A stretch of 64,000 nt of DNA from Candidatus Hodarchaeota archaeon. GTDB taxonomy: Archaea > Asgardarchaeota > Heimdallarchaeia > Hodarchaeales > Hodarchaeaceae. This document shows positions 8,690 through 59,361 of the stretch, piece after piece. The DNA lies in contig JBHLKC010000001.1 of the NCBI GenBank assembly GCA_048887065.1, forward strand, positions 1,264-65,263, given 5' to 3'. The number at the start of each line of letters is the position of its first letter. Position 1 is the first letter of the stretch. The notes under the pieces were generated by a model. It saw nothing but the letters and a program-made list of their open reading frames with translations, was not told the origin of the DNA and made no database searches. The translations under genes were made by a program, and so were the position numbers.

Positions 8690-8880
8690 TTATTGACTCT
8701 CATTTCTTTATTAAGGCTAGAGATAAGGAATATTATTCCAAATCTTCCTTCTTTTACCTCAAGGATCCTTTTTTCTATTATCTATAAGAGTATTAAGCAT
8801 GAATAAGAATCTTTTAGAATACAACACTAAACCTAAAAGAAGGGTGTTGACGGGAAACCGTAAAAAAAAAGATTTATAGA

Positions 8881-9282
8881 TCAATTAGTTATTACTTTCT
8901 TTAAAAATTCTGTATATCTACTTGAATCAAAAGGATAAGATGGATTAAGCTTGAATTTTTCCTTTTTATGCATTATTTCTAATGCTGGTGTTCTCAGAAT
9001 TCTTTTTAACAACAAATATCTTATCTTTTTCGCTATTCCTGTAATATCTTTGACCTCTAAAGGGATTCCATGTTTTTCACAATGATTCCTTGTATTGATA
9101 ATAACTTTTTGCATTTCAGTGGAATAAAAATTCTTTTCTAAATTGATTGCTGCCATTGAAATTCTTTCATTAACCACAAGTGAATGGCAATGTCCCTTTT
9201 TACATCCTCTTTCTATTACTACTGGTCTTGACACTTTACTAACATACAGCGTTACCTGAATGTTACTTTTATCTTCTGACAT
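8881..9282 (-). CDS. hypothetical Cys/His-containing protein
   Basis: 133-aa ORF with a CKKGHCH cluster. No family recognised. Confidence 0.3.
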   Translation of the reverse strand: MSEDKSNIQVTLYVSKVSRPVVIERGCKKGHCHSLVVNERISMAAINLEKNFYSTEMQKVIINTRNHCEKHGIPLEVKDITGIAKKIRYLLLKRILRTPALEIMHKKEKFKLNPSYPFDSSRYTEFLKKVITN

Positions 9283-9427
9283 GGATCAAAACTCCTCTCA
9301 ACGTTCCGATTTTTCGGAACGTTCCCATTATTAAAAAAGTTAACTTTTTCTGCAAAAAAAAATATGAATCTAATTCTTTCTTTAAAACACCATTTATAGG
9401 TTTTAACCTTAAAATATGTTGATAAAA

Positions 9428-10027
9428 TTATTCAGAACCAGTAAAACCAAAAAAGAAACTCCCATAAGTTTTCTCATAGGCCTCATTGTCAATAGTATCT
9501 CTTAGTTGATTTCCAAACTTAGTCTCAAAAAAATTCTTGAAGTCAGATAAAAACTGTTGTTCTCTATCCATTGAATAAAATAAAACTCCAATATCCCTTC
9601 GAAGCTGTTTTCTCTTTTCTGCTTTCAATATACCTTCCTTTATTTCCTCATTGGTCAAATTCAGGGTTTTTCTGATTTCTATCTTTAGTAAGGCTAAAAT
9701 AATAAATAGATTAAACAATTTTAATTCCCTAGGCTTTTCCATGATTTCTTGTGGATTTTTTAGTATTTTCTCGAATTCTTTGCTAATGCGATATTTTTTC
9801 AGGTTCAAAGATTGTTTCACAGTAATTACTTCGGCTTCAATCAACCCAGAGTTTAGCATCTCTTTAAGATTGTAATACATTTTGGTTTTCTTGAATTTAA
9901 GAGTGTTGATGAGCTCCTTGGCAGTAATTCCTGGTTTTAGAAAGATTTCAGACCAAATCGCAGTCCTAGTTGGATTCGTCATCAATTCCTCGAACACCCT
10001 CATCTCGAAAGACAATTCATACACCAA
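9428..10027 (-). CDS. putative winged-helix transcriptional regulator
   Basis: N-terminal HTH-like segment (ITAKELINTLKFKKTKMYYNLKEMLNSGLIE). 199 aa. Confidence 0.4.
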   Translation of the reverse strand: MVYELSFEMRVFEELMTNPTRTAIWSEIFLKPGITAKELINTLKFKKTKMYYNLKEMLNSGLIEAEVITVKQSLNLKKYRISKEFEKILKNPQEIMEKPRELKLFNLFIILALLKIEIRKTLNLTNEEIKEGILKAEKRKQLRRDIGVLFYSMDREQQFLSDFKNFFETKFGNQLRDTIDNEAYEKTYGSFFFGFTGSE

Positions 10028-37075: not shown

Positions 37076-37924
37076 ATGCTTTTTCAAGAACCAATAGTAA
37101 CTTTCGCTGATGTTATTATCGCTCTGATATTAACTAGTTTTGCTGGATTTGCTACGACAATTGGTGCTGCAACTGCTTTTATAACAAAAAAACCGTCTAT
37201 CCGTGTTCTTGCAATAGGATTAGGGTTTTCTGGTGGTGTAATGCTAGCAGTTTCGTTCGTTGAACTCCTTCCAAGTGCTCTTGATGAGTTTGCTAGTACT
37301 GGGTTGTCAGAAGGAGAATCATTTTTCTGGGGTAATTTTTGGTTCTTTGTTGGAATTTTCTTCATTTTTGCCATTGATGTTCTGATTCCCCACATTTACA
37401 AGGAAGAAGATAGTGGACACCAGCATTCTCATGAATTATCATATGATAGTGCTGATAAACAAATTTCCAAGGCCAATCTGCGAAAATTGGGATTGTTGAC
37501 AGCCTTAGGTATAGCTGTGCATAATTTTCCTGAAGGATTAGTTACATTCACAAGTAGTTTAAAATCTGTGGAGTTAGGTGTTGTATTGGCTATTGCTGTT
37601 GGTTTACACAACATACCAGAAGGACTTTCTGTTAGCATCCCTATTGTAACAGCTACAGGTGATAAATGGTATGCATTTCGTCTTGGACTTCTTTCTGGAA
37701 TTGCAGAACCTGTAGGTGCTTTACTAGCAGCTATAATTTTGTACCCATTTTTATCATCTAGCATTATTGGAGCTTCATTAGCCTTTGTCGCTGGTATAAT
37801 GGTTTTTATTTCATTTGATGAATTATTACCAGCTGCCAAATCAGCAGATGATTCCCATCTAGTCACTATAGGGGTTATCGGTGGAATGATTGTTATGGTT
37901 TTTACTCTATGGATGTTTACTTAA
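37076..37924 (+). CDS. ZIP-family divalent metal (Zn/Fe) transporter
   Basis: Two HNxPEG signature helices (VHNFPEGLV, LHNIPEGLSV), His-rich loop HQHSHE. 282 aa. Confidence 0.85.
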   Translation: MLFQEPIVTFADVIIALILTSFAGFATTIGAATAFITKKPSIRVLAIGLGFSGGVMLAVSFVELLPSALDEFASTGLSEGESFFWGNFWFFVGIFFIFAIDVLIPHIYKEEDSGHQHSHELSYDSADKQISKANLRKLGLLTALGIAVHNFPEGLVTFTSSLKSVELGVVLAIAVGLHNIPEGLSVSIPIVTATGDKWYAFRLGLLSGIAEPVGALLAAIILYPFLSSSIIGASLAFVAGIMVFISFDELLPAAKSADDSHLVTIGVIGGMIVMVFTLWMFT

Positions 37925-41678: not shown

Positions 41679-42362
41679 TTATGCCATTTCTACCTTTTTT
41701 ATCCGAAAACGGCAATAACTATCGCCATTTCCAATGCATTTTTCCTTAAAAACCGACTGCCCTATTAATTCATGCATCATTGTCTCATCAACCTTGCAAA
41801 TCATAGGATTCACTTTTGCTACTCCGTGCATTAGACAGTTATAGTTTGTTAATGCGTATGATGTCTCATCTTCATCTAGCTTAGGAAAAGTACCATGTTC
41901 TTCGAAAATTCCAACCAGCTTATTCAATTTAAATTCTAAAGAATCGACTTTGTCTGATAATTGCCTTTTCATTTGATCACTTATATTTAAGGCTAATTTT
42001 TTACCAATATTTGAGAAAAGCATCTGTAGTTTATCTTCTCCATACATAACCTTTATTTCATCAAGTACGGTTATACAAAATTCCATGTAAGTTTTAGGAA
42101 AAAGCTCTATCCCCTTTTCGGAAATTGAATAAACCATAGCAGGTCGTCCAGTCTTCCCTTTCTTCTCTTTCTTAAAAACAAAGCCTTCTTTTTCTAAGGT
42201 TACAAGGTAGTTCCATACAACATTAGTACTAAGATCTAATGAACTAGCAATGGCTTTCACAGTAAAATATGTGTTCTCATCGGATGTTGAACCTTGGTGC
42301 ATCAAAAAGCGTAGGATCCTTTCACGGGCTGGAAAAGATAAGTTTCTAAAATTATTTACCAA
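41679..42362 (-). CDS. winged-helix regulator with C-terminal V4R-like Cys domain (MsvR-like redox-sensing regulator)
   Basis: N-terminal wHTH (RERILRFLMHQG...). C-terminal NYNCLMHGV..NPMICKVDE...EKCIGNGDSYCRFRI resembles the V4R consensus C...G...CxF. Paralog of 47484-48173. Confidence 0.5.
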   Translation of the reverse strand: MVNNFRNLSFPARERILRFLMHQGSTSDENTYFTVKAIASSLDLSTNVVWNYLVTLEKEGFVFKKEKKGKTGRPAMVYSISEKGIELFPKTYMEFCITVLDEIKVMYGEDKLQMLFSNIGKKLALNISDQMKRQLSDKVDSLEFKLNKLVGIFEEHGTFPKLDEDETSYALTNYNCLMHGVAKVNPMICKVDETMMHELIGQSVFKEKCIGNGDSYCRFRIKKVEMA

Positions 42363-43624: not shown

Positions 43625-44395
43625 TTGATTGTACCAGAAATTGTCGTGATATTCTATGGAGTAGTAGCAGGTGTTGGTACACTTTCAGGTATCTACATAA
43701 TGAACTCAAAGCAAGAATGGGCAATAAAACATTCTCACTATGTTAATTCATTTGCTGCTGGATTATTATTAGCATTAGTTTTTTTTCATCTTATTCCAGA
43801 AGCAGTAGAATTATTAGAAGTAATAGAAAGCTCAGAGCTAGCTTTTATTGCGGTTTTCATCGGATTCTTCTTCTTCTATCTATTGGAGAACTTTATTGTA
43901 CTACATTCAGGGAGTGAAATCCATTACCACTTAGAAGAATCCCCTGAACCCCATGTACATACCTCTGAAACAAGAATGGGGTTAATGGCGTTCTCTGGGT
44001 TAGCATTCCATTCTTTGCTAGATGGCGTCATAATTGGAGTAGGATTTGAAATTAGCTCTGAAATTGGTTTCCTTGCTGCTATGGCTGTAATTCTGCACGA
44101 AATCCCAGAAGGAGTAACAAGCTTTGCCCTCATTAATCGTACTATTCCCGAAAGAGCAAAGTTAATGGCTATTATTGTAGCTCTTGCCACTCCTTTTGGT
44201 GCGATGTTTTCTTTGCTGTTTGTTGAAGGCTTAACTGAATCGGTAATTGGAATTCTTTTAGCTTTAGCTGCAGGTTCATTTATTTATGTAGCAGCTTCAG
44301 ATCTAATACCTGAAACTCATTTAAGTAGTAATTTTCAAAATTTATTTTTCTTTTTACTCGGAGCAATCGTGATTTATGCAATTTCATTAATCTAG
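43625..44395 (+). CDS. ZIP-family divalent metal transporter
   Basis: HSLLDGVIIGVGF and LHEIPEGVTSFAL signature helices, His-rich loop HYHLEESPEPHVH. 256 aa. Confidence 0.8.
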   Translation: MIVPEIVVIFYGVVAGVGTLSGIYIMNSKQEWAIKHSHYVNSFAAGLLLALVFFHLIPEAVELLEVIESSELAFIAVFIGFFFFYLLENFIVLHSGSEIHYHLEESPEPHVHTSETRMGLMAFSGLAFHSLLDGVIIGVGFEISSEIGFLAAMAVILHEIPEGVTSFALINRTIPERAKLMAIIVALATPFGAMFSLLFVEGLTESVIGILLALAAGSFIYVAASDLIPETHLSSNFQNLFFFLLGAIVIYAISLI

Positions 44396-44465: not shown

Positions 44466-45161
44466 CTATAATTTAAGACTCAGTATATACTCAGTAGGAT
44501 TTTCAAACTGTTTTTGAATTTTAAAGCCAGGAATAGAGAGTAAATAAAATAGACAAGATCCAAGGTAATAAAATGAAACGAGGGTTACTAATGACGCTAT
44601 ATAGAGAAACAAAAAAGAAAATTCAACCGAAGGATAAGTTGAATGCCCCATCCGAATTAGAATTATGCAGATCCCATAACCATCGTTTACAGATCCCAAC
44701 ATGGCTGGTAATATGGGAAATAAGTTTATTAAATTAATTAAAAGGCCAAAAATTAGAAATTTTTTACCTGCAACAGAGGCTGGACTTTTTTTGTTACGAA
44801 GTACTATTATTCCCGCAATAGTGATTGTAAATACCATAAGAGAACCTGCTAGCTTCATTATTATTGATCCCCAGCAAACAGGTAATTCTTCAATGGTGAT
44901 CATGTTCGAACAGCCTCCTTCATATAAATGACAGATTTTAAACTGAGAATCAACTGTTGGTAGAATAATCGATGATGCAAGTAGGTGTCCTAATTCATGA
45001 AGACAATTGAACGGCAAATAAACGATATTATAAAGGCCTTGAACAATAGGGGATTGTTGAAGTAGATATAGAAAAAAGATTGAAAATAAAATTGAAAAGT
45101 AAAATTTAGCGTTTTGATTAATAACGGAAGGTGTGTCCTCGTTCATAGGTTTTTTTACCAT
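44466..45161 (-). CDS. membrane protein with intramembrane HExxH motif (putative membrane metalloprotease-like)
   Basis: 231 aa with about 5 TM helices. Motif CLHELGHLLAS. Family not resolved. Confidence 0.3.
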   Translation of the reverse strand: MVKKPMNEDTPSVINQNAKFYFSILFSIFFLYLLQQSPIVQGLYNIVYLPFNCLHELGHLLASSIILPTVDSQFKICHLYEGGCSNMITIEELPVCWGSIIMKLAGSLMVFTITIAGIIVLRNKKSPASVAGKKFLIFGLLINLINLFPILPAMLGSVNDGYGICIILIRMGHSTYPSVEFSFLFLYIASLVTLVSFYYLGSCLFYLLSIPGFKIQKQFENPTEYILSLKL

Positions 45162-45349
45162 GTAATATAAGGACGTATGGTTATTAAAACCTTTTTAGAA
45201 TTTTTTATTGATTTTAAAAAGTTTTAATTCATTTTACAATTTAAAATGTAAAAAAATTTTAAGCTTTTAGTAGAAAAAATGGAAGGAGATAGCAATTTCA
45301 ATTCTTACTGTCTAATTTTATTGAGAGAGTAAGTGAATATTGCTAGTGG

Positions 45350-46063
45350 TCACTGAATTGGAATCTTTTCTTTACCAGTTACCATTCCTCTAAGTCGTTG
45401 ACGATTTTCAGGGATTATAGCAAAATAAAAATGCACCATCGTAGAGACAAGGAAATATACAAACATAAGGAAGTGAAGGAAACGAATGTTAAGATTCAAT
45501 GCTTGCACCGGTGCAACAAGTAATGCCAATACAGCAAGTATCCCTGTAGATCCAGGTGCTAATTGCTCTGCAAGAGCAATTCCTGTTACACCCATTAGAA
45601 ATATTACAACTAGGTTCATTAAAGCTAGTAGTTTTTGAGCAGGATGATATTTCATAATATATTTCTTTTCTTCGAGGATATAGAAGTCATAATGGGGATA
45701 CTTTGAATCAGGTAAAATTCTAAACGCACATAATGCAATGATAATCAAGTCTAGAATCTCTCTTGGTGTAGGAATAATCTCAAGGAGTTTTCTGTCTTTT
45801 ATTAAGATCGCAATATAAAAAATTAAATCCCAACCACCTACAAAAATTCCAAGAATATAATGGAGAGTACGAGTGAACCCATATGTAGTTCCAAAGAAAT
45901 AGACTTTAATAGCGATTTCAAAACCTGTTAATATAAATAGAACCATAGATCCAACGTGAACCCAATGATGAAGTCGGTGGCTCTTTGTATATCTTTCTAC
46001 AGAAAGAAACTCGAAAGTTTTTGATTCGTCTGCTTTTGAGAGTACTTTTTTTGTTTTAAGCAT
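45350..46063 (-). CDS. membrane di-heme b-type cytochrome (Ni/Fe-hydrogenase/formate-dehydrogenase cytochrome b subunit-like)
   Basis: 237 aa with 4-5 TM helices. Conserved R..HRLHHWVHV on TM1 and further His on later helices, as in the HyaC/FdnI family. Confidence 0.5.
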   Translation of the reverse strand: MLKTKKVLSKADESKTFEFLSVERYTKSHRLHHWVHVGSMVLFILTGFEIAIKVYFFGTTYGFTRTLHYILGIFVGGWDLIFYIAILIKDRKLLEIIPTPREILDLIIIALCAFRILPDSKYPHYDFYILEEKKYIMKYHPAQKLLALMNLVVIFLMGVTGIALAEQLAPGSTGILAVLALLVAPVQALNLNIRFLHFLMFVYFLVSTMVHFYFAIIPENRQRLRGMVTGKEKIPIQ

Positions 46064-46099
46064 AATTGATCATCTACATAAGTAAAATTTGTCTAAAAA

Positions 46100-47011
46100 T
46101 TATTCTTCAGAAGAAAATGTTTCATTCCAACGCTCTCTAAATGTTGGGCTCTTCCAACGATTACTAGTGCTTAATTTTGTTGGTATATCGCTAGAAATTA
46201 GTCGGTAATCGTGTTTTATTGGATTTATGATTACTCTACGAATGAAGTGCAGAACAATAAACCCAAAACCACTTAACATTGTTAAGCTAAGCACTTGGAG
46301 CTTAAGTTGATCATAATTGATTACTGTTGGGACAGGAATATTTCCAGGGGCAATCCCAGCTTGAGGAGTGGAAAATGATGTAAGTATATAGTAAAAAGTA
46401 TGTGAACCAAAATGATCACTTTTTGAAGCAAATTGAATCATTGTTATGCTTCCATTCTGATACACAATATCATAACCATTAGAATCAACACTTGTTGTAT
46501 CTAATAATCTCACAACTTCAATCTCTACAAGATCGCCTGTGAAAATACCTTCAGCTAAAAGATCATTATTAGTGTCTTCACTAGGCATCCGCGTTCCAAT
46601 AAAGAATACATCCTTCGCTTCTACAGTTTTAGCATTCTCATCAATATAAATAGCCCAACCGTCATGCTGGTTCATCATACATGCAGAGGTATCTGCGTCA
46701 AACTCGATTGATATCCATTCATTGCTTGCTGAGCTAACAAGTAAAGCATACAGATGAGTTTCGTTATTAGCAAATTTAACGTAACCCTTAGGACCGTATT
46801 CTGATATATTCTGATAAGATTCAATAGATGACCAAAATGGATCAATTTGACCATCATTCAGGTTCAATGTGGTGTTTGTTTTACTGGATACGAATCCTGG
46901 AGTTTCATCTGCAACCTTGCTCGGATAACCTAATGTTGATCCTACAAAGAAGCCTGCTCCAATAAAAAAGGCTATCATCAACAAAGATAGGATTATTTTT
47001 CTCATTCCCAT
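46100..47011 (-). CDS. extracytoplasmic DOMON/EB_dh-like (putative heme-binding) domain protein with N- and C-terminal TM anchors
   Basis: 303 aa with signal-anchor and C-terminal TM. Central domain (DPFWSSIESY...THLYALLVSSASNEWISIEFDAD) resembles ethylbenzene-dehydrogenase-gamma/DOMON-type domains. Has N-glycosylation sequons. Lies 36 nt upstream of the cyt b gene on the same strand. Confidence 0.35.
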   Translation of the reverse strand: MGMRKIILSLLMIAFFIGAGFFVGSTLGYPSKVADETPGFVSSKTNTTLNLNDGQIDPFWSSIESYQNISEYGPKGYVKFANNETHLYALLVSSASNEWISIEFDADTSACMMNQHDGWAIYIDENAKTVEAKDVFFIGTRMPSEDTNNDLLAEGIFTGDLVEIEVVRLLDTTSVDSNGYDIVYQNGSITMIQFASKSDHFGSHTFYYILTSFSTPQAGIAPGNIPVPTVINYDQLKLQVLSLTMLSGFGFIVLHFIRRVIINPIKHDYRLISSDIPTKLSTSNRWKSPTFRERWNETFSSEE

Positions 47012-47483
47012 TTTAATTTCACTTCTACTATGTCCAACACAATATTCAGACTTAATACAGTAATTAATAGATTGTATTCTCCCTTGGGGATACCGTCTGA
47101 ATCGGAAAAATAATTTTGACCAATAGAGAACAATTACTCACAGTTTTTACGTGTTAGTTGCAGATATTCTAGCTGTTCCTTGGATTGTAATGTGGAGAAT
47201 AATAATTATTTTTCCGATTTTAAATTCTATAAAATAATATTTTAATTTTTCCATTTAAAAATTTGCAAACTGTATTTATTTTGTACTTAACTAGTGTAAG
47301 AAGTAAAAGAAAAACAGAAAAGAGGTTAAAATTTAATTATAGATTTTTTACAAAGACAGTAGGCATTGATTATATCGAAAATTTTGCAGCTCTTCCTCTA
47401 TAATAAGTGAAAAGAATTTGAAGCCTTTATCAGTGGTAATTTTGGGAAGGATATCTTACATTGAAGTCCTTTTTTAGGGGTTA

Positions 47484-48173
47484 TTAACTAGCTTTCACTT
47501 TTTGAATTCTATAGAGACAACATTCATCGCCGTCTCTAAGACATTTCTCTTTTGTACACTTTTGACCTGCTAATTCCGCTATCATTGTCTCGTCAACTTT
47601 ACAAACCAATGGATCATGTCTTACAACACCATAAACAAGACAGTTATAATTCAAGAGCGAGAATGATGTTTCGTCTTCTATTAATTCTGGAAACTTCCCA
47701 TAATCTTGGAAAACTTCAGCCACTTTTTCTAGCCTTTGTTTAACTGGTAGAGAATCGAAGGATTCTGTTCTATCCATATTAGATTCGATAATATCTTTTA
47801 TTTCTGAGGCGATTCTTTTCCCTACCATTTCGAGCATGGTAACTGTCTCTGCAATACCATGACGACTCTTAATTAAATCGACTAGATAGATAGATAAATC
47901 TCTATAAACCTTAGGAAAAAATTCAAAAGCATTGTCTGTAAGTGTGTAAGTCATAGCAGGCCGACCTGTTGAACCCTTCAGTTCTGTTCGTACCACAAGT
48001 CCATCTTTTTCAAGAACAACCATATATTGTCGGGCTGCATTTGTACTAAGGCCAAGTTCAGTTGCAATCTGTTTTATGGTACAACAATCACCATCTGGTG
48101 ATCGATTAAGCAACAAGTACCGTAAGATCTTTTCACGTGTCGTAATAAATGGTTCTTGTTCTGCTTGGATCAT
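47484..48173 (-). CDS. winged-helix regulator with C-terminal V4R-like Cys domain (MsvR-like), paralog of 41679-42362
   Basis: Shared blocks RPAMTYTLTD, EDETSFSLLNYNCLVYGVVRHDPLVCKVDETMIAELAGQ, EKCLRDGDECCLYRI. Confidence 0.5.
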   Translation of the reverse strand: MIQAEQEPFITTREKILRYLLLNRSPDGDCCTIKQIATELGLSTNAARQYMVVLEKDGLVVRTELKGSTGRPAMTYTLTDNAFEFFPKVYRDLSIYLVDLIKSRHGIAETVTMLEMVGKRIASEIKDIIESNMDRTESFDSLPVKQRLEKVAEVFQDYGKFPELIEDETSFSLLNYNCLVYGVVRHDPLVCKVDETMIAELAGQKCTKEKCLRDGDECCLYRIQKVKAS

Positions 48174-49192
48174 TTTTTTTCTCCTATCTTTATGAAAAGG
48201 GTTTTGTTTGTATAATCATAATGGGAACAGTGATTGATTTCAAAAAAAATGAGAGGCGCTATTGAAATATTGGTTAAACAATGTTTCCGCTCATAATTAT
48301 ATAATTTGATTTTAATGAGAGGAAATATCCAAGGCATGCGAATGAACTCGCGACTTTATTATTATGATTATCCGTGTAAATAAAGAATAAATACATATAT
48401 AATAATTTTCCTAAAAAAAAGCATAAAATCAAAAAAGTTGACAATGAATACATAATTTAACTACTTTCTGAATTTAACTAACTTTTATCTACTGAAAATA
48501 ATAAATATTGAGAAATAAGAAACCTAAACGTTTTTGCTCTTGTTTCTTTAAAACATTTGAAGAGGATTTTACTCGTTGAAATTCAATCCTTTTTGAAGGC
48601 CATATTCGATTTAAATAGTAGAAAATGATTTTCACTAGCGATAAAAGCGAATTATGTCTCAATCATGTCCGATCTTATTGCTAGCAGATTAACCACAAGA
48701 AAGTTATTATCTCTTGATGGAAAAATAATAATTAGAAAAGTAAATTTCAATTACATCCGAATTCATAGAGGCTTAATACTATAACAATTAACTATTGTAA
48801 ATTAGTTTAACTAGATTCGAAAAACGGATTATATATTATCTCTTTTTGTAAAATAAAGTTCGCATCCGTTTTTTAGGCTATTATTATCAAAATGGTTTTT
48901 ATTGGATTTTTTCCAGCTCTATAAGTCTCTTCTGTATTAATGCAGATTTTCTGAAGTTTTTATAATAGATACATTAAAAAAATAAAAAACTATAGTTATA
49001 TTTCATACATTTAATAATACCATAATGTTTTTTTATCTGAAATTATACCTATACTTGAGTATAGTTTCTAATACTATATTTATCGCAAAGTTTGCGAAAT
49101 TCGAAATAACATACGATATGTCGGTTAAAGTACCGATAGTTAACTTCTTACCAAGAAGTAGCGAAGAAAATCTCATATACGGCGGTATATTG

Positions 49193-50512
49193 ATGAATCA
49201 AGAAGAAAAATTAGTCAGCCAGAGTAAGTGGAGTGGCAAGCGAGTTGTGTTACTCTACTGGTTCTCAATCGCTTTCTTGGGAACAGCTGCTGCTGCTGGT
49301 CTAGGTGCTGGTGTTTTAAATCCTAAATATTCCTTCGATGCAGTACAAATGGACCATAGCAGTATAACTGATCCCTGGGGACCACAAGATTGTACTGGTG
49401 CTTATTGTCACAATGACTCGGTTGACACTTGGAATGAAACTGGACATGCTCATGCTGCTGTTCCTTTCACTAATACTACTGGTGATTTTGTGGAAATAGC
49501 AGGTTCGAGGAATGTTACACGTGCCCAATTTGACTCAAGTTGTGGGCATTGTATGGCAACAGGATGGGACAATTCCACTGGAACTGTCACCTACTGGGAT
49601 TTTGGAGTAACTTGTGCAGCCTGTCACGAGCCAGGTGTAATAAATTATACTGCAGCAAGTTGTGGGAACTGCCACACTGGAAGTCACCACCCTCAATATC
49701 CAGATTACCAAAAGAGTGCACATTCTCAATCAATGGATGATTTGCTGGCAAGCGATCACGCGGGTGACCACTGTCTTCATTGCATGTCTGGACAAGGGCT
49801 ATATGCAGAAGAAGAGTTATCGCTTGATGATACCTTCTTAACTTCGATTAACTGTGCTACCTGTCACGATCCCCATGATGCGACAAATTCAACTCAACTA
49901 CGAGAAGCAGATGTGACCGATCTCTGTGGTGAGTGTCATAGTGGAGGTCGCCATGGATCTCTAGATATGCTAACCGATACAGAAACTACAAGTGCTCATG
50001 GATACATTGATTGTACCTCGTGCCATGGTTACCAGCTTGACAGTTACGGTGAAGCAGGTGTGAATCATACTTGGGCTGTGACAACGGATGGATGCTCAAC
50101 ATGTCATTCAAACCCCACCGAACGATGGACTCTGATGGAGGATATCCAAGGCGATATCACTGCACTAATGGACGAATACGAGACTCTATATGAGAATGTC
50201 ACTAAAAAAGTCGATGAAGCCAACGAAACAGCAGGCGTAGATGAAGCCTTGATCAATGATTCTTTCGATTTAATCGCTGAAGCTGAAGCACTTTTCATTG
50301 CAGTTGATGGTGACGGAAGCGAAGGTTTCCACAATCCTGACTTAGCTGAAGCAAAACTCAAATTGGCTCTAACAAAGCTGGATGAGGCTTATGCTAAAGC
50401 TGAAGAGGCTGTAGCTGGTGGTGGTGACGTTCCTGGATTTGAAGTATTCACAGTCTTAGCAGCGATTAGTGTTCTAGCTGTAGGAGTTCTTCTCTACAAG
50501 AAAAGACGCTAA
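49193..50512 (+). CDS. surface-anchored multiheme c-type cytochrome with PGF-CTERM archaeal sorting signal
   Basis: Six canonical CxxCH motifs (CAACH, CGNCH, CATCH, CGECH, CTSCH, CSTCH), one CX4CH (CTGAYCH) and two CxxCM. N-terminal signal/TM. More than 10 N-x-S/T sequons. Ala/Glu-rich linker, then VPGFEVFTVLAAISVLAVGVLLYKKRR (PGF motif + TM + basic tail). The track ORF starts at 49025, but the ATG at 49193 precedes the signal peptide. Confidence 0.8.
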   Translation: MNQEEKLVSQSKWSGKRVVLLYWFSIAFLGTAAAAGLGAGVLNPKYSFDAVQMDHSSITDPWGPQDCTGAYCHNDSVDTWNETGHAHAAVPFTNTTGDFVEIAGSRNVTRAQFDSSCGHCMATGWDNSTGTVTYWDFGVTCAACHEPGVINYTAASCGNCHTGSHHPQYPDYQKSAHSQSMDDLLASDHAGDHCLHCMSGQGLYAEEELSLDDTFLTSINCATCHDPHDATNSTQLREADVTDLCGECHSGGRHGSLDMLTDTETTSAHGYIDCTSCHGYQLDSYGEAGVNHTWAVTTDGCSTCHSNPTERWTLMEDIQGDITALMDEYETLYENVTKKVDEANETAGVDEALINDSFDLIAEAEALFIAVDGDGSEGFHNPDLAEAKLKLALTKLDEAYAKAEEAVAGGGDVPGFEVFTVLAAISVLAVGVLLYKKRR

Positions 50513-50597: not shown

Positions 50598-50972
50598 TTA
50601 GTTGGGAGGCAGAGGTATGTAGAATATTACTTTGTATTATGAGGTTTCTTTCATGCAATTTCTCGATAATTCAGAATGTTAAGATCTTTAATTTAGTGTT
50701 AGAACAGAAATAAAAAAATCGATTCTATGAGATTAATTGACATTTTAATAATTGTATTAAACCTGATTTGCTTACAGGTTTTGAATTGATTATGGTGTCA
50801 TTTTTATGGAAGGGACTTTTATTAAAACTTCTTTCTGTATTTCTCCCTACAAACAATAAGAATTTACCTATCTAATCCTGTAACTAGAACGTTTGGGTTT
50901 TCTGAAAAAAAATTACCGTGTGTTTATTACCAAAAATTATACCTAGAATATTGTTAAGGGTTATTACTTAAT

Positions 50973-51404
50973 CTATTTTTGGCATACACACGGTAGAGAA
51001 ACACAATCAGATAGGATTGGCTGAATCCCTGAGAGATTAATTTCGTTCTCAGTAATTGTTCCATTTAATGCTTTGCTCGTTAGTTCCAAGAATCTGTCAG
51101 TTTCGTCTATCCCTAATTTTGTAAGACTGGGGAAGAGCTTAGTTTCAATCTCTCGTAGATCGCAAGCTGTTTCACAGATAGAGTAACACCCGCTTTCAAT
51201 TTTGTTTCGTGTCATTCTGAGTTGTTGTAGAAGATCATTGGGTATTTTATCACCGTTCTTATATATTCTCCCAATTGTAGAGGCCATTACTGCCCATTTC
51301 CAGCCAAATTTAGAAAGCATCTCTTCTAATTCAGCTTTAGATTTGCTTTTCTCCATTCTTTGTCCAAATTCAGATCTAGTTTGCACTCTCATTTTTATCT
51401 CCAT
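50973..51404 (-). CDS. hypothetical Cys-containing protein
   Basis: 143-aa ORF flanked by long non-coding spacers. No recognised motif. Confidence 0.3.
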   Translation of the reverse strand: MEIKMRVQTRSEFGQRMEKSKSKAELEEMLSKFGWKWAVMASTIGRIYKNGDKIPNDLLQQLRMTRNKIESGCYSICETACDLREIETKLFPSLTKLGIDETDRFLELTSKALNGTITENEINLSGIQPILSDCVSLPCVCQK

Positions 51405-51726
51405 TTTCTAAGAGGATCAAAATGTATTGAATATACGAACTTTTTAGTTTATAAATTTTTTTTATTTTTTAAATATTTATTAAATAGAGGAATATTATTA
51501 ATTTTTTAACTAAAAAAGTTAAAAATCAATTACACAAGTTTCACACCGCCTTGTCCACGTGCAATAATTAGCCTTGGTAATTGTATTTTATATTTCAGAG
51601 CTTTAACTCTTCAATTTTCTACAGGAAGAAACGCTAAAAACTAGTTGAGTATCTTAGTGAAGCAAAATGTCCAAAATGCTTTACATATTCCTTTTTTTCT
51701 TTTTTACTTGAATATTGATATGAATA

Positions 51727-52416
51727 TTATTCTGTTATCAATTCATCGATAAACAAGAGTATCAATACTAAGACAATGATTGCATGAAGGAAAAGAAGAA
51801 ATGCATTGATTACAACTGAAGTTGGATCATAATAGAATGTTAAATTTCTTGTAGCCTCTGCAGCAATAATAATGGATGGGAGAATTAATGGGAAAAACAG
51901 AATCGGAATGGCTAAAGTTTTAGATTTAGCATAAATTGTCAAGAAAGACACAATACAACCAGCAACAACTAGATCGATTGTCCCAATTGCCAAAACAAAA
52001 CAAAAGAGTAACAAGTCTCCTTGAACATTAATTTCTAAGAAGATTATAGCCATAGTAAATGCGAATACCTCGACAACTGCCAAAATAACTCCTAAATACA
52101 AGAGTTTTGCCAAAAAAATTGCTTGAGGTTTAATCGACAACGAAAGGAGTGAATATATTGAATTTTTCCTCATTTCCCGTGAAAAGACCGAATTGAGACC
52201 TAGCATGACAGTAAAGGCAATTATAAACCACATTGATGCTGTAGAAATTGTATACTTTGCTTCAAGAGATATATTCTCAATGAGATTAAAGAGAGTAGAA
52301 AATATAAGTACAGAGGCTAAAGAAAAAAGGCCCATTGAAAAAAGAGTCTCTTTTGTCCTAAATTCTAGAATTAAATCCTTTTTTGCTATATTAAAGGTGT
52401 CAAGAATAATTGACAT
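51727..52416 (-). CDS. ABC-2-type permease, putative heme exporter protein B (CcmB-like)
   Basis: 229 aa with 6 TM helices, immediately downstream of the ABC ATPase in an operon with ccmC. The CcmB assignment is contextual. Confidence 0.5.
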   Translation of the reverse strand: MSIILDTFNIAKKDLILEFRTKETLFSMGLFSLASVLIFSTLFNLIENISLEAKYTISTASMWFIIAFTVMLGLNSVFSREMRKNSIYSLLSLSIKPQAIFLAKLLYLGVILAVVEVFAFTMAIIFLEINVQGDLLLFCFVLAIGTIDLVVAGCIVSFLTIYAKSKTLAIPILFFPLILPSIIIAAEATRNLTFYYDPTSVVINAFLLFLHAIIVLVLILLFIDELITE

Positions 52417-52439
52417 TATTGATCCACAATTAAATAATA

Positions 52440-53201
52440 TTAATTCTTGTTTTTCAAGAAAAAATCATATTCAGAAGGAATGAGTACTTTCGTGATCCCA
52501 CCATTTTCGAGATAAAACACTCTACTGCACAAGCGAGCTATTGTACGAAAATTATGTGAACAAATGATAACTGTTCGATCTGCCTGTCGTTTCGTAATGA
52601 GCTGATTCAAGAATTTTTTATTCTCTACATCTAAACCACTAAAAGGTTCATCAAGGAGAAGCAATTTAGGCAAAGTAGGTAATAAAACCCTTAAAATTTC
52701 CAGTTTTTTAGCCATGCCAGTAGAGAGTTCATGTGCGGGTCTGTCAATATATAATTTGAGATTATACTGTTTTACTGCTTCATTAATAATCTCATTAGTA
52801 TTTTTTGTACGTTTATTCATTTTGAGATAATATTCAAGATTTTCACGTCCAGTAAGATCCTCATAAAAGAATGAATGGCTTAATAACACTCCAATATCCT
52901 TTTTCAAGAGATGATATTTTTCCTTAGCTTCTGTACCAAAAATTTTGATGCTACCTGAAGAAGGGGTAACCAGAAGGGATATAATTTTTAGAAGTGTGCT
53001 CTTTCCAGCTCCATTATGTCCAATAAATCCTATTGTTTCTCCTTCTTCTATTTTCAGATGAATTTTCTTTAAAGCAGTCGTAAAACCATAAATTTTGCTA
53101 ACATTTGTCAATTCAACAGCTGGCAGATTGTTCTGCATACCAACGCTCATCTCAAAGCACCATTTAACCTCAATGCTCCCTGTATATGGAAAAAAGGTCA
53201 T
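52440..53201 (-). CDS. ABC transporter ATP-binding protein, putative CcmA
   Basis: Walker A GHNGAGKST, signature LSTGMAKK, Walker B LLLDEPFSGLD. Confidence 0.8.
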   Translation of the reverse strand: MTFFPYTGSIEVKWCFEMSVGMQNNLPAVELTNVSKIYGFTTALKKIHLKIEEGETIGFIGHNGAGKSTLLKIISLLVTPSSGSIKIFGTEAKEKYHLLKKDIGVLLSHSFFYEDLTGRENLEYYLKMNKRTKNTNEIINEAVKQYNLKLYIDRPAHELSTGMAKKLEILRVLLPTLPKLLLLDEPFSGLDVENKKFLNQLITKRQADRTVIICSHNFRTIARLCSRVFYLENGGITKVLIPSEYDFFLKNKN

Positions 53202-53232
53202 ATGAAAATCTTAAAATCCTCAGACTCCAATA

Positions 53233-53391
53233 TTACTCCTTTAAACTGTCTAATTCACGTTCTAATTTCTTCAACTTATTAACAGTATAATAGAGATAGA
53301 GAAAAATCAGTATCCATGCAGCAATAGAAACAAAAAACATCAAATTTAATTCAGAACCAAGAATTTCATCAAATATGTCAGTTACAGCCAT
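53233..53391 (-). CDS. small single-TM protein, CcmD-like (not in ORF track; 52 aa)
   Basis: My own translation: MAVTDIFDEILGSELNLMFFVSIAAWILIFLYLYYTVNKLKKLERELDSLKE. One TM helix plus a charged tail. Lies between ccmC and the ABC ATPase, where ccmD sits in ccm operons. Confidence 0.4.
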   Translation of the reverse strand: MAVTDIFDEILGSELNLMFFVSIAAWILIFLYLYYTVNKLKKLERELDSLKE

Positions 53392-53425
53392 TATGTTAAC
53401 CTCCGATTAAATTGTATTTGAAGAT

Positions 53426-54154
53426 TCAATCTTCCTCCATTCTTTGTTTTCTTAATTTTTTTAAAGCAAAATCCATTTTATTGAGTTTATACGCTTGATA
53501 GATCAGAATTAAGGCCAATATTCCAATAAATAAAAAGTTTAACATTAAGAACATGCCTGCCCCAGTGCTATAACTTGTTTGTTGAGGATTAGGATGTAAG
53601 ACTCCAACTATAACATATGATAGGGGTACAGAGACGAATGCTACAATTCCAAATACTGCTGAAATCGTTGCCTTTCTTTCGTGATTTTCGACTTCTATCA
53701 TATCTCGAAAGATTAGAAGGCCAACATATATGAGCCACATAACTAAGGTTATTGTCTCACGATCATTCCAATCCCAAAAAGTACCCCATTCAACTTTTGC
53801 CCAAATCATTCCAACAATGATCGTTATTGCTCCAAGTACAACACCGACCTGAGCACTTGAAACGAGAATAAGATCTAATCTCAAATCTTTTTTCCATAAT
53901 AAGAAAAGAATTCCGCAAATAAGAGCAATTCCAAAGCAGAAGTATGTTGAAAAAGCGAATGGAACCATATAGAATATTGGTTTACCACTTACTATAAAAC
54001 CCTGAAAAGGTTTTAATGAGATATAGACCATATAATAATTAAAAGTGATAAAACCCAATCCAATAATGAAAAATATCTGAGTCTTGTATGGGATTTTTCG
54101 CCAAATTTTATCCATGATAAAATCCGTATAAGGCTTAAGAATTTCCGGACTCAA
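53426..54154 (-). CDS. ccmC: heme exporter protein C (CcmC) with WWD domain
   Basis: Tryptophan-rich WWD signature VEWGTFWDWNDRE, conserved His in flanking loops, 6 TM helices. 242 aa. Confidence 0.75.
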   Translation of the reverse strand: MSPEILKPYTDFIMDKIWRKIPYKTQIFFIIGLGFITFNYYMVYISLKPFQGFIVSGKPIFYMVPFAFSTYFCFGIALICGILFLLWKKDLRLDLILVSSAQVGVVLGAITIIVGMIWAKVEWGTFWDWNDRETITLVMWLIYVGLLIFRDMIEVENHERKATISAVFGIVAFVSVPLSYVIVGVLHPNPQQTSYSTGAGMFLMLNFLFIGILALILIYQAYKLNKMDFALKKLRKQRMEED

Positions 54155-54345: not shown

Positions 54346-56172
54346 TTGCATGTTTTGAAACATTTATTGTATTATATTTCACAACGAAAATCATTAGCAT
54401 TTGGTGTTTTAATATTCATATTTGTTGCCCAAATTGCTGAATTAACCATACCTCTACTTGTTGGTTCAGTTATTGATCAAATTCTGCTATCTTTAACCGA
54501 AGATCGTTTCCAAATCTCTATAATCCTCTCTGGAGTCTTGTTGATTCTTATTGCAAGCATTATTCGTGGAATTACCTACTTTTTTGCGAGATGGATTGGT
54601 TACGTTCAAGGAGAAGGGATAATTTATGATATAAGACAGGATTTGTTTGAAAAATATGAAACATCCAGTATTTCATTTTTCGATAAACATCATACTGGCG
54701 ACCTTATGGCTCGTGCAACAACAGATTTAGAACCAATTTCGGAATTTTTGGTGTGGGGGGAACGAATACTAGTTCAGGCAGGTTTAACTTATATAGGGAT
54801 ATATTTAGTCTTGTTATTAGTTAATATTCAGTTATTTCTTCTTATAGCAATTGTTACCCCCTTGTTATTCATTCTTGCGTATTTTGTGTCAACAAAACTA
54901 GGACCTCTCTTCTTTGATATCCGAACTCAGTATGGTAAGTTAACCACCGTAATTCAAGAAAATATCTCAGGAACACAGATTGTTAAAGCATTTAATGCAG
55001 AAGATAGGGAGAAGAAAAAATTCGATCAAGAGAATCTAGGGTACATGGCCTTACGAGCTTACGCATTTAAAATTAGATCGATTTTTTTACCAATGTTCAT
55101 GTTTCTTGTCCATCTATTAGTAACCATTCTTATTTTTTCGGGAGGATACTTAGTTATCCAAAACGAGATTAGTCCTGGGTCTTTAATTACTCTATTCATG
55201 TACTTCACGATGCTTAGTATGCCCACTAGATTCTTAGCTTTTGCTTTAATAATGTATCAACGAGTTTCTGCGGCTGGTGATAGAGTATTTACATTAATTG
55301 AAACTCCAGCTGATTTAACAGAGCCAATAGATGCGAAAATCTTCCCTACAGACATAACTCCTAGTATTATTTTCGAAAAAGTCTCATTTAAGTACAACAA
55401 AAGGAAAGCTTTGTCAAAAATTTCATTGATAATTAAACCTGGTGAAAAAGTAGCTATCCTTGGCCCAACAGGATCAGGAAAGAGCACTTTAATTTCACTT
55501 ATTCCTAGATTTTATGATCCGACTGAAGGTCGTATTAGTGTAGAAGCTAGTCCTAATGAAGTATATAATCTAAAAGAGTTAAACCTCAAGAACTGGCGTG
55601 AAAGAATTGGTTATGTACATCAAGAACCATTTTTATTTGGCCGAACTATCGCTGAGAATATTATGTTCGGTATTCCCCAGGCTACATCAGAACAAGTTAA
55701 TGAAGTAATAAAAATCGCTCAATTAGATGATTTTATTGGGGAATTACCAGAGGGAGTGAACACCCTTGTTGGTGAGAGGGGAGTAACTCTGTCAGGAGGT
55801 CAGAAACAACGTGTTGCTATAGCCCGGATGTTATTGAGAAAAAAAAGAATTATGATTCTTGATGATGCTACTTCAGCATTGGATATCTCGACCGAAACTA
55901 AATTTCAAGAAGCATTTGAAAATTTTCTCGCAAAAGATTCTCGTAAACATACCCTCATTCTGATTACTCAAAGATTAAGTACTTTGAAAATAGTTGATAG
56001 GATTATTATAATGAACCAAGGTCAAATTATAGAACAGGGCTCCCATGAAGAGTTATTAGAAAAGGGTTTGATTTATCCTCTTCTTTGGAAAACTCAGGAA
56101 GCGGGGATGGTTGATATAAAACTAGCCTTGGAAAAGATTGTTCAGGAGAGTGATTTGGCTGAGCCAAACTGA
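54346..56172 (+). CDS. ABC exporter, fused permease + ATPase (ABCB/MsbA type), subunit 1 of a heterodimer
   Basis: 6-TM domain, Walker A GPTGSGKST, signature LSGGQKQR, Walker B ILDDATSALD. Confidence 0.85.
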   Translation: MHVLKHLLYYISQRKSLAFGVLIFIFVAQIAELTIPLLVGSVIDQILLSLTEDRFQISIILSGVLLILIASIIRGITYFFARWIGYVQGEGIIYDIRQDLFEKYETSSISFFDKHHTGDLMARATTDLEPISEFLVWGERILVQAGLTYIGIYLVLLLVNIQLFLLIAIVTPLLFILAYFVSTKLGPLFFDIRTQYGKLTTVIQENISGTQIVKAFNAEDREKKKFDQENLGYMALRAYAFKIRSIFLPMFMFLVHLLVTILIFSGGYLVIQNEISPGSLITLFMYFTMLSMPTRFLAFALIMYQRVSAAGDRVFTLIETPADLTEPIDAKIFPTDITPSIIFEKVSFKYNKRKALSKISLIIKPGEKVAILGPTGSGKSTLISLIPRFYDPTEGRISVEASPNEVYNLKELNLKNWRERIGYVHQEPFLFGRTIAENIMFGIPQATSEQVNEVIKIAQLDDFIGELPEGVNTLVGERGVTLSGGQKQRVAIARMLLRKKRIMILDDATSALDISTETKFQEAFENFLAKDSRKHTLILITQRLSTLKIVDRIIIMNQGQIIEQGSHEELLEKGLIYPLLWKTQEAGMVDIKLALEKIVQESDLAEPN

Positions 56173-57934
56173 AGACCAAAGAGATCGCTTGAGTCGTGAG
56201 TATTCAGATTGGGAATTATTTAAAAGATTAATTGGTTATACTCGACCACATTGGTTTGTATTTGTGACTGCTATGGGTGCAATGTTTCTATCTACTATTT
56301 TCTCAGTTATTCAACCATTAATACTTCTAAGAGCTATTGATGATTATATACTTCCTAAAGATGTTGAAGGTTTGGGTCTTGTAGCAATTCAATATTTTAT
56401 GGTTGCACTAATCGCGTTTCTATTAAGTGTGATTGCTACCTATTTTACTACCATAACAGGTCTGAAGATTATTACGCAGATTCGTCAAGAAACATTTTAC
56501 AAACTTCAAACCTTAAGTATGGATTATTATGACAAAGAAGCAACAGGTAGAATTATCTCTAGGGTTACTAATGATGTGGAAAGGTTACTTAACTTGCTTT
56601 CAACAGGGATCATCGACGCTATAATCAATAGTATATTTCTTGGTGTTTTGTTTATCGTTTTACTCTATTTAGATGTACGCCTAACTATCACTGTTTTGAT
56701 CTTCTTTCCAATTTTAGCAGTTTTTATAATTTATTTCCGAATCAAAGCACGTTCAGCATGGCAACAAACAAGGAGAACTCTAGCAAAAGTGACTGGATAT
56801 TATCAAGAAGCTATTTCAGGGATTGAAGTCTCGAAAGCATTTGTAGCAGAGGATTTTATGACTAACGAATTTGAAATCCTTAATCTAGAGAATTATCAAG
56901 CCCGGATGAAAGCACTTATCTTGTTTGCAGTAATGTTTCCCATCATGGATATGATTCTAGCCATAGGAACTGCCATAGTTCTTACTGTTGGCGGCTATTC
57001 GATTGGAACCCAAACAATGTCTATTGGAACACTAGTGGCTTTTATTTCATATCTAGGAAGAATATCTCAACCGATAATGATTCTATCAAATTTCTATAAC
57101 AATTTATTAAGTGCAATGGCTGCAACTGAAAGAATCTTTGATATCCTAGACAAAACTCCTGGGGTTATTCCTCTTGATGAGCAATCCTTGCCTGAAGTTG
57201 AAGGGACTATTGAATTTCAAAACGTTACATTTGCTTATGATCACGAATCTGATCCTGTCCTCAAGGATTTTCAGTTAACAATTCCTGCTAATGGGACATA
57301 TGCCCTTGTTGGCCATACAGGTGCTGGAAAAACAACAATAACAAACCTACTTTGCCGTTTTTATGATTTTAATCACGGAAAAATTCTGGTTGATGGTAAT
57401 GATATACGAAATCTTAATCTTCAAAACTATCGTAATTGGATTTCAATCATTCCTCAAGATTCATTTCTCTTTTCTGGATCAATAAGAGAAAATCTCCTGT
57501 ATGGAAAACCTGATGCATCTGTTCAGGAAATCGAACAGGCCCTTCTCAGGGTTGGTGCTTTCGATTTCGTGATGAGTAAAGGATTAGATGCTGAAGTTGG
57601 TGAACGAGGGACGAGACTATCGATGGGGGAACGCCAATTACTCTGTTTTGCAAGAGCAATTATTTCAAATCCAAAGATTTTATTACTAGATGAAGCAACA
57701 TCCTCAGTTGATGCACATACTGAATTAGTAATTCAACAAAGTTTACATCATATTATACGAAATCGGACTGCAATAATAATAGCCCATCGACTTAGCACGG
57801 TTCGAGCTGTAGATAGAATAATTGTGTTAAAGGAAGGGAAAATTGTTGAACAAGGCTCTTTTCAAGAATTACTAGAAATTAAGGGCATATTTGCTGATTT
57901 ATATGATAAACAATTTGCTGGCCAAGAGATATAA
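56138..57934 (+). CDS. ABC exporter, fused permease + ATPase, subunit 2
   Basis: Walker A GHTGAGKTT, signature LSMGERQ, Walker B LLLDEATSSVD. 35-nt overlap with subunit 1. Confidence 0.85.
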   Translation: MFRRVIWLSQTEDQRDRLSREYSDWELFKRLIGYTRPHWFVFVTAMGAMFLSTIFSVIQPLILLRAIDDYILPKDVEGLGLVAIQYFMVALIAFLLSVIATYFTTITGLKIITQIRQETFYKLQTLSMDYYDKEATGRIISRVTNDVERLLNLLSTGIIDAIINSIFLGVLFIVLLYLDVRLTITVLIFFPILAVFIIYFRIKARSAWQQTRRTLAKVTGYYQEAISGIEVSKAFVAEDFMTNEFEILNLENYQARMKALILFAVMFPIMDMILAIGTAIVLTVGGYSIGTQTMSIGTLVAFISYLGRISQPIMILSNFYNNLLSAMAATERIFDILDKTPGVIPLDEQSLPEVEGTIEFQNVTFAYDHESDPVLKDFQLTIPANGTYALVGHTGAGKTTITNLLCRFYDFNHGKILVDGNDIRNLNLQNYRNWISIIPQDSFLFSGSIRENLLYGKPDASVQEIEQALLRVGAFDFVMSKGLDAEVGERGTRLSMGERQLLCFARAIISNPKILLLDEATSSVDAHTELVIQQSLHHIIRNRTAIIIAHRLSTVRAVDRIIVLKEGKIVEQGSFQELLEIKGIFADLYDKQFAGQEI

Positions 57935-58002
57935 TATTTCATTTATTTGAGAATTCAATCTCAATTTAGGCTCTTTTTCTTAAAGTACCAGGTGATCTTC
58001 TA

Positions 58003-59361
58003 GTGACTCCAGATTCAGTTCCATCTAACTCTAGTAATACAAAAGAATCAGGTTCAACAGCGAATACTCGCGAGAAAGTTCCTATTTGGGGGACAAGTAT
58101 TGGGTGGGCTGCTGGAAGATCTTCTATTTTTGCTTTTCTGTCTTATTGGGGAGTAGTTCTAGGCGCTTCTCCTTTAGAACAATCCATTCTAACTTCGGTG
58201 AGAAATCTAGGATCTAATATTTTCCAATCAGTATGGGGTTGGTTAGCAGATCTCAAAGGACGGAAACTCGTCATCGTTATTGGGCTTACTACTCTGACGA
58301 TAACAACGTTTCTTTCCCCTTTTGCAAACAATCCTACTGAGCTTGTTCTAATTTCGTTAGTCATGACAACTGTTGGATTTAGTATTATTCCAGCATGGAA
58401 TGCTTTTTTGGGTGATTACTCATCTGAGCGTACTCGGGCTTCTTTTATAGGCAGAATTAACTCTGTAGGTACTCTAACTTCAATTGCAGTAATACTAATT
58501 GTCGGAATTTTGATGGATTTAAGCCCATTTCCGTTCCCTCGTGAGTCTATAGACTATGTTTTAAGTAAACCCGCTTTCTTTATTCCTTTTGTATTTGGAG
58601 CTTTGCTTTTTGGAATGACGATTGTTATTTCTTTCTTTCTAGTTGAAAAGTATGATGTAAAAGAAAGAATGGCAATTGACGAGGAACTCCGACCATCTTG
58701 GAGAACGCTAATTAATAGAAACAAGCCATTTCAACGACTCTTACCTTTAGATAGTTTTTTCAAATTTGCTATGAGCACTGCATGGCCAATATTCCCTTTT
58801 GTAACTCTTCGTGTTGCTGATTCCTGGTTTATGGTTTCACTTATGTGGGTGGTTTTTAACTTACCGAGAGGAATTGGTCAAAACTTTGGGGGAGCTCTAG
58901 CAGATAAATACAATAAGAAAATCATCATCATTTTGTCTCGACTTGGATATGCTGTTGTCCCATTAGGATATGCTTTAGGTTTAATTACTGGAAATGTATG
59001 GTTCTTAGTCTTAGTCAATATTCCTGGAGGTTTGGCATTCGGTGCCGAAGATACTGCTATTGCTACTTATTCTTTAGATTGTTCTACTGAAGAAACAAAA
59101 GCAAGATATTATTCAATGTTACTGACTGCTGAAGGAATTAGTGCTTTTATTGGTTCACTCTTTTCAGGTTTCGTTATGGATGTGTGGTTACGTATCTCTG
59201 GAATTAATTATGATAGTTCAGACTTTAATTTTGTTTTGTTTGTCATGTTAATGATAATTGCCTCTTTAAGATTAGTATCAGCTAGTTTACACAAATTCAT
59301 CTATAAAAATCCATTGGATTTTGATCTAGAGCAATTAATTTCGTTAAAAGAAAGTTCTTAA
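58003..59361 (+). CDS. MFS transporter
   Basis: 12 TM helices, motif A GWLADLKGRKLVIVIG. Confidence 0.75.
   Translation: MTPDSVPSNSSNTKESGSTANTREKVPIWGTSIGWAAGRSSIFAFLSYWGVVLGASPLEQSILTSVRNLGSNIFQSVWGWLADLKGRKLVIVIGLTTLTITTFLSPFANNPTELVLISLVMTTVGFSIIPAWNAFLGDYSSERTRASFIGRINSVGTLTSIAVILIVGILMDLSPFPFPRESIDYVLSKPAFFIPFVFGALLFGMTIVISFFLVEKYDVKERMAIDEELRPSWRTLINRNKPFQRLLPLDSFFKFAMSTAWPIFPFVTLRVADSWFMVSLMWVVFNLPRGIGQNFGGALADKYNKKIIIILSRLGYAVVPLGYALGLITGNVWFLVLVNIPGGLAFGAEDTAIATYSLDCSTEETKARYYSMLLTAEGISAFIGSLFSGFVMDVWLRISGINYDSSDFNFVLFVMLMIIASLRLVSASLHKFIYKNPLDFDLEQLISLKESS

Follow-up and report, generated by a model that had tools for sequence, protein, structure and literature searches.

System I cytochrome c maturation (Ccm) is known in Escherichia coli from the CcmABCD complex (PDB 7F02-7F04, 8CE1), which comprises a CcmC with six transmembrane segments and a WWD domain, a single-transmembrane peptide (CcmD) encoded right after ccmC, a permease of the CcmB family and an ATP-binding cassette (ABC) ATPase. 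Archaeal cytochrome c maturation has so far been characterised genetically in one methanogen, Methanosarcina acetivorans, where CcmABC, CcmE and CcmF are required and the system was described without CcmD, CcmH and CcmI (Gupta et al., eLife 2022, PMC9084895). The same paper, on the authority of Allen 2006 and Kletzin 2015, stated that ccmD is missing from all archaeal genomes and built a CcmD-independent model, while its discussion refers to a variant System I of the bacterium Desulfovibrio desulfuricans that has a CXXXY-type CcmE and a required CcmD. Here, a stretch of 64,000 nucleotides from Candidatus Hodarchaeota archaeon (assembly GCA_048887065.1, contig JBHLKC010000001.1, positions 1,264 to 65,263; hereafter the window) was analysed. 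Four minus-strand genes of the window (51727-54154) very likely make up the part of an archaeal-type System I that delivers heme, and a conserved CcmD-type gene is among them.

The first gene, ccmC (53426-54154), encodes 242 aa from a TTG at 54154 with GGAG upstream, and an alternative ATG lies at 54115. It is followed by the ccmD-type small open reading frame (ORF; 53233-53391), 52 aa long with an ATG start and GGAGGT 7 nt upstream, by an ABC ATPase gene in the ccmA position (52440-53201) and by ccmB (51727-52416), which encodes an ABC-2 type permease of the CcmB family of 229 aa. The ATPase measures 253 aa as the longest ORF, and its true start is probably at 53150 or 53138; the protein would then have 236 or 232 aa, like its counterparts in relatives. 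The intergenic gaps from ccmC to ccmB are 34 nt, 31 to 82 nt according to where the ATPase gene starts, and 23 nt.

Gene neighbourhoods were mapped at 16 related Heimdall/Hodarchaeal loci with CcmC identities of 52-96%, taken from 13 GTDB representative genomes, a 96% identical sister metagenome-assembled genome (MAG) and two JGI metagenome contigs. At all 16 loci the order ccmC-small ORF-ATPase-ccmB was constant. The initial annotation had set this C-D-A-B order apart from the A-B-C-D order of bacteria such as E. coli; the order is as it described, and it is the norm of the clade and not a quirk of a single genome. The window CcmC ORF is identical in sequence to GenBank MFX0149194.1, and the genes of the operon are already annotated in that database. 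The presence of the ORFs in GenBank and the clade-typical gene order therefore lower the novelty of the locus.

CcmC matched PF01578 with 73.3 bits (cutoff 29.9), and among PDB sequences its first match was E. coli CcmC with CcsBA next. An AlphaFold2 model of the protein (pLDDT 85, pTM 0.82) had its best PDB matches in 8ce1_C and 7f02_C, both E. coli CcmC, at a TM-score of 0.70-0.71. The WWD motif WGTFWDWNDRE, on which the initial annotation had based its CcmC assignment, is located at 53756-53788 on the minus strand (residues 123-133), and the protein is a six-transmembrane WWD-domain protein that handles heme. A MAFFT alignment covering 164 sequences showed conservation in the Trp and Arg columns of E. 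coli W119, W125 and R128, whereas the column of E. coli D126 holds Asn in the window CcmC and Asn or Glu over the clade. The closest non-Asgard CcmC sequences were archaeal, from Bathyarchaeota and Archaeoglobus, and in this the locus resembles the likewise archaeal system of M. acetivorans.

The heme-ligand positions of CcmC differ from those of E. coli at one of the two sites. Met63 (codon 53966-53968, minus strand) takes the place of the E. coli P-His1 (H60) both in a HMMER alignment to 7f02_C and in the MAFFT alignment of 164 sequences. E. coli H60 is an axial heme ligand, and the H60A variant makes neither holo-CcmE nor cytochrome c (PMC9616876). All 13 of 13 clade members have Met at this position. 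Of the 149 nearest cluster representatives at 50% identity, 137 have His, the Bathyarchaeota and Archaeoglobus relatives included. The equivalent of P-His2 (E. coli H184) is kept in sequence alignments as His187 (codon 53594-53596, minus strand) within LHPNP; it is invariant in the clade alignment and is the sole His predicted on the outer face. The window CcmC has just two His residues, His187 and one in a predicted cytoplasmic loop, so that CcmC by itself cannot ligate heme through two His. Met63 and His187 would be the likely axial heme ligands in place of two His. The CcmF of the lineage retains its His ligands. No mention of P-His1-to-Met variants was found in the literature searched.

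The 52-aa small protein has an acidic N-terminus, one transmembrane segment and a basic/amphipathic C-terminus, and the distribution of charge fits an N-out/C-in topology like that of E. coli CcmD. Its ORF was located directly downstream of ccmC at 16 of 16 related loci, and the protein had a mean column identity of 74% over 15 copies. Because synonymous sites were saturated (median pS 0.77) while pN was 0.15, with a dN/dS of about 0.09 for pairs with finite dS, the ORF is judged from its substitution pattern to be a translated gene under strong purifying selection and no chance ORF. The protein scored 33.9 bits against NCBIfam TIGR04391 (CcmD_alt_fam, an alternative CcmD family; cutoff 24), and this cutoff was exceeded by all 15 orthologues with a best E-value of 3.3e-10. 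The initial annotation had proposed an unlisted CcmD-like ORF of 52 codons with a single transmembrane segment at this place and on the same strand as ccmC. The ORF is real and conserved, although it is not new to the databases, as an identical 52-aa protein is named "CcmD family protein [Candidatus Hodarchaeota archaeon]" in GenBank.

A profile search returned 91 homologues of the small protein, all Asgard where named (Hodarchaeales, Heimdallarchaeota, Promethearchaeota, Thor- and Odinarchaeota), which places a CcmD-type subunit in at least one archaeal superphylum. These Asgard genes, classed as CcmD-type by family matches, contradict the universality of archaea without ccmD. Annotation pipelines label the Asgard gene as CcmD-type, and no mention of a conflict over archaeal CcmD, of TIGR04391 or of Asgard/Heimdall Ccm was found in the literature searched.

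Two further archaeal loci have a short single-transmembrane ORF after ccmC. In a divergent Met-type locus with the order ccmF-ccmC-small ORF-ccmE (L019), an ORF of 50 aa (8771-8923) is homologous to the Hodarchaeal CcmD (hhalign probability 94%). The second, a 41-aa ORF (8680-8805) of a Bathyarchaeota locus with the order ccmC-small ORF-ccmE-ccmA-ccmB (L020), had no detectable homology to the Hodarchaeal CcmD and was set aside as a positional analogue only. Because small ORFs also follow ccmC at these two loci, overlooked genes in the ccmD position may be more common in Archaea.

The permease matched CcmB (PF03379) with 53.3 bits against a cutoff of 24.9 in the profile search that the initial annotation had recommended, while generic ABC-2 permease models scored far under their own thresholds on the ccmB product. 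Its sole PDB sequence match was E. coli CcmB (7f02_B, E = 6e-4). The ATPase scored 105.9 bits against PF00005, its best NCBIfam matches were of the DrrA and GldA types, its top PDB matches were the nucleotide-binding domains of ABCA/ABCB, and no CcmA-specific signal was found in it with the NCBIfam models or in the PDB search. The ATPase gene was always located between ccmD and ccmB in the mapped loci. It encodes a generic ABC ATPase, and its assignment as CcmA comes from the invariant linkage to ccmD and ccmB alone. Of the ABC pair first proposed as ccmA and ccmB, the permease is thus assigned by its PF03379 match, while the ATPase, under the CcmA cutoff, is assigned by context.

The initial annotation reported that ccmE and ccmF are not in the window, and a tblastn search of the 64 kb agreed, with no ccmE, ccmF or glycosidase-like gene detected and an expected CcmF/CcmC WWD cross-match as the only match. 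Both genes directly adjoin the operon in 12 of the 16 loci of relatives, where ccmF encodes about 750 aa including WGGFWAWDPVE and ccmE about 130 aa. The CcmE C-terminus is CPSKY (Cys-X3-Tyr, the archaeal/Desulfovibrio type) in the sister MAG and all relatives. Most of these 12 loci also have a GH76/epimerase-like membrane protein of 700-740 aa and a multiheme cytochrome. The locus with an 85% identical CcmC (L016) is syntenic with the window on both sides, and blastn breakpoints show that its 5.1-kb ccmE-ccmF-GH76-like block is replaced here by a 1.1-kb segment (50619-51726), in which no remnants of the ccmE/ccmF block were found. This segment includes a 143-aa minus-strand ORF (50973-51404) with a Cys-rich C-terminus, which is unrelated to the L016 block and had no family or PDB match; the same ORF, 89% identical, is present in the 96% sister contig (L002), which likewise does not carry the 5.1-kb block at the operon locus.

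The sister MAG (GCA_048886445.1, 96% identical) has ccmCDAB on contig 20, and on contig 77 a block consisting of a multiheme cytochrome paralogue, the GH-like gene, ccmF and ccmE. Within this MAG the accession numbers of CcmC and CcmE, verified to be of the same assembly, are 1,057 apart. The window CcmC (MFX0149194.1) is 1,673 numbers from the CcmE MFX0150867.1, which is in the same 90% cluster as the CcmE of the sister MAG and probably belongs to the window's own assembly. This accession proximity makes it probable that the window's own genome has a second locus with ccmE and, by implication, ccmF. System I is probably complete here, of archaeal type and divided between two loci. The search for ccmE and ccmF elsewhere that had been advised at the outset thus succeeded on a separate contig of the sister MAG and reached CcmE by accession proximity in the window's own assembly.

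A glycosidase-like gene recurs in the relatives' block. At L007 (4923-7109), L010 (5059-7281), L016 (15120-17225) and L018 (5462-7672), a membrane-anchored GH76/GlcNAc-2-epimerase-like protein of 700-740 aa is encoded between the multiheme cytochrome and ccmF. In the complete Heimdallarchaeota chromosome CP070760.1 (L001/L009), only an ORF of 214-234 aa (8895-9599) that matches the C-terminal part of CcmF precedes ccmE. Its upstream side is a stretch masked with N, beyond which a gene lies on the opposite strand; this chromosome may have a split CcmF or one encoded at another site.

The probable substrate of the system is a multiheme c-type cytochrome encoded on the plus strand 1.2 kb from the ccm operon (49193-50512, with the longest ORF starting at 49025), in keeping with the adjacency first noted. 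It has an N-terminal transmembrane segment or signal anchor and seven heme motifs, six CXXCH and one CTGAYCH. Its C-terminal PGF-type sorting tail (PGFEVF...KKRR) resembles the Loki/Heimdall-CTERM signals and scores under their cutoffs. Orthologues of this cytochrome adjoin ccm genes in L006-L008, L010, L011, L013 and L015-L017. The window cytochrome also has two CxHCM motifs, CGHCM and CLHCM, and the same two are found in L007, while the paralogue in L018 has CLHCM and CAGCM.

The four components of E. coli CcmABCD all have counterparts in the window. Compared with E. coli System I, the partner CcmE here is of the Cys (CPSKY) type and not the His type, and the ccm cluster is without ccmG/H genes. 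A CXXXY CcmE and the absence of CcmH/I from the ccm clusters examined are shared with M. acetivorans CcmABCEF. Unlike that system, the Hodarchaeal clade has a conserved CcmD-type gene, the window CcmC has Met at P-His1, and most relatives encode a single CcmF in place of the split CcmF of M. acetivorans (two genes). In contrast to the archaeal ccm genes of PMC9084895, which that paper describes as lacking an operon arrangement, those of most relatives form one cluster. The D. desulfuricans variant, known here from the discussion of PMC9084895 alone, is similar in combining a Cys-type CcmE with CcmD and differs in being bacterial.

A mechanism can be proposed by analogy with E. coli CcmABCD (PMC9616876) and the genetics of M. 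acetivorans (PMC9084895). CcmC would hold heme b at the outer face of the membrane in its WWD site, with Met63 and His187 the likely ligands, and the 52-aa single-transmembrane CcmD-type protein would bind to CcmC. ATP hydrolysis by a CcmA2B2 ABC module would then release heme-loaded CcmE, and this Cys-type CcmE, with its C-terminal CPSKY, would pass the heme to CcmF. Multiheme cytochromes that are secreted and anchored at the surface, such as that at 49193-50512, would receive the heme from CcmF at their CXXCH motifs, with ccmE and ccmF probably located at a second locus beside a paralogous multiheme cytochrome. It is possible, and put forward tentatively, that heme loading in the Heimdall/Hodarchaeal lineage is distinct, in that a Met/His CcmC and a TIGR04391-type CcmD as an integral subunit would serve a Cys-type CcmE.

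Family matches, synteny and the ccmE and ccmF genes of relatives support the System I assignment that the initial annotation had made, and the four genes are with high likelihood its heme-delivery module. A number of results weigh against this. The NCBIfam models were not reached, as CcmC scored 73.2 bits against TIGR01191 (ccmC), far under the cutoff of 186, the permease 24.2 bits against TIGR01190 (ccmB), far under 156.2, and the ATPase 100.6 bits against TIGR01189 (CcmA), under 131.6, with DrrA-type and other ABC models outscoring the CcmA model on the ATPase. The window CcmC has no His at the P-His1 position, a residue that E. coli cannot do without. The canonical CcmD family PF04995, suggested initially as the profile for the small ORF, was matched by none of the 15 orthologues even at E <= 10, TIGR04391 matching instead; hhalign gave a probability of 0.3% between the small protein and E. 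coli CcmD, and a PDB profile search with the small protein found no CcmD. In addition, ccmE and ccmF are placed in the window's own genome by accession proximity, directly so for CcmE alone.

The undetectable similarity to PF04995 and E. coli CcmD leaves room for the 52-aa ORF to be a real conserved membrane peptide that is not a functional CcmD, for example a lineage-specific assembly or stability factor of CcmC or the ABC module. The TIGR04391 match would then reflect mere generic architecture, a transmembrane segment plus a charged tail, and the model is just 36 positions long; M. acetivorans also makes holo-CcmE without a recognised CcmD (PMC9084895), and the Bathyarchaeota small ORF shows no detectable homology. 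This is nevertheless unlikely given that every orthologue passed the curated cutoff, that the ORF always occurs immediately after ccmC as bacterial ccmD does, that its charges fit the orientation of E. coli CcmD and that a homologous ORF occurs between ccmC and ccmE in L019.

The missing 5.1-kb ccmE-ccmF-GH-like block, absent here and at L002, and the lack of ccmE and ccmF across the 64-kb window would fit a stand-alone ccmCDAB heme exporter or detoxification system, uncoupled from cytochrome c maturation after loss of ccmE and ccmF from the locus. Such uncoupling is very improbable, as the sister MAG has ccmF and ccmE on a separate contig and the window's own assembly probably has them as well, a multiheme cytochrome in need of maturation is 1.2 kb away, and the four proteins all show high conservation when compared with loci that have adjacent ccmE and ccmF. 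The initial annotation had also named a drug or lipoprotein exporter as the family to which the ABC pair might turn out to belong. The DrrA/GldA and ABCA/ABCB matches of the ATPase would be accounted for if the pair were an ABC-2 exporter of drugs or lipids, unrelated to ccmC and no more than its neighbour. Against this, the permease is above the CcmB threshold with the ABC2_membrane models under theirs, its only PDB match is E. coli CcmB, the linkage to ccmC and ccmD is invariant down to 52% CcmC identity, and the same pairing occurs in the Bathyarchaeota locus L020. An unrelated exporter has the least probability of the alternatives, and a very slight one. Neither of the two outcomes that the initial annotation had named as refuting its reading was observed, the small ORF being conserved in relatives and the permease of the CcmB family.

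If the proposed heme loading by a Met/His CcmC with an integral CcmD were true, CcmD would not be absent from Archaea, small ORFs after ccmC elsewhere (Bathyarchaeota, L019) may be overlooked CcmD equivalents, and the published "streamlined CcmABCEF" model would need revision. The clade-wide Met at P-His1 also offers a natural experiment in WWD-site heme ligation when the acceptor is a cysteine. What remains of interest, to a modest degree, is the disagreement of literature and databases on an archaeal CcmD, together with the Met conserved at P-His1, and the system is on these grounds classed as a variant of a known one. Current opinion places Hodarchaeales nearest to eukaryotes among the archaea, and for this reason System I and the surface multiheme cytochromes bear on reconstructions of Hodarchaeales respiration and extracellular electron transfer. 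For mitochondrial System I the generally accepted source is the alphaproteobacterium from which mitochondria arose, and the locus has no bearing on where that system came from.

Other genes of the window were also compared with those of relatives, and a tRNA scan across the window found none. A conserved four-gene set on the minus strand (44466-48173) encodes a 231-aa membrane protein, a cytochrome b (PF01292, 237 aa), a 303-aa protein and a SufR/MetOD1-like regulator, and is syntenic with ccmCDAB in L003-L005 and L009. The 303-aa partner of the cytochrome b is anchored by a signal or transmembrane segment and had no family or PDB match. This set may serve the multiheme cytochrome as a partner module for electron transfer in the membrane. 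On the plus strand and divergent from ccmC (54346-59361) are two fused TMD-NBD ABC exporters (608 and 598 aa) and an MFS transporter, which keep their position in L002, L016 and L017. Within 12 kb are genes for two metal transporters of the ZIP family (37076-37924 and 43625-44395) and for a second SufR/MetOD1-like regulator (41679-42362), which shares 45% identity with the L016 orthologue of the regulator at 47484-48173. The ZIP transporters and the second regulator hint at a neighbourhood concerned with metal or iron homeostasis.

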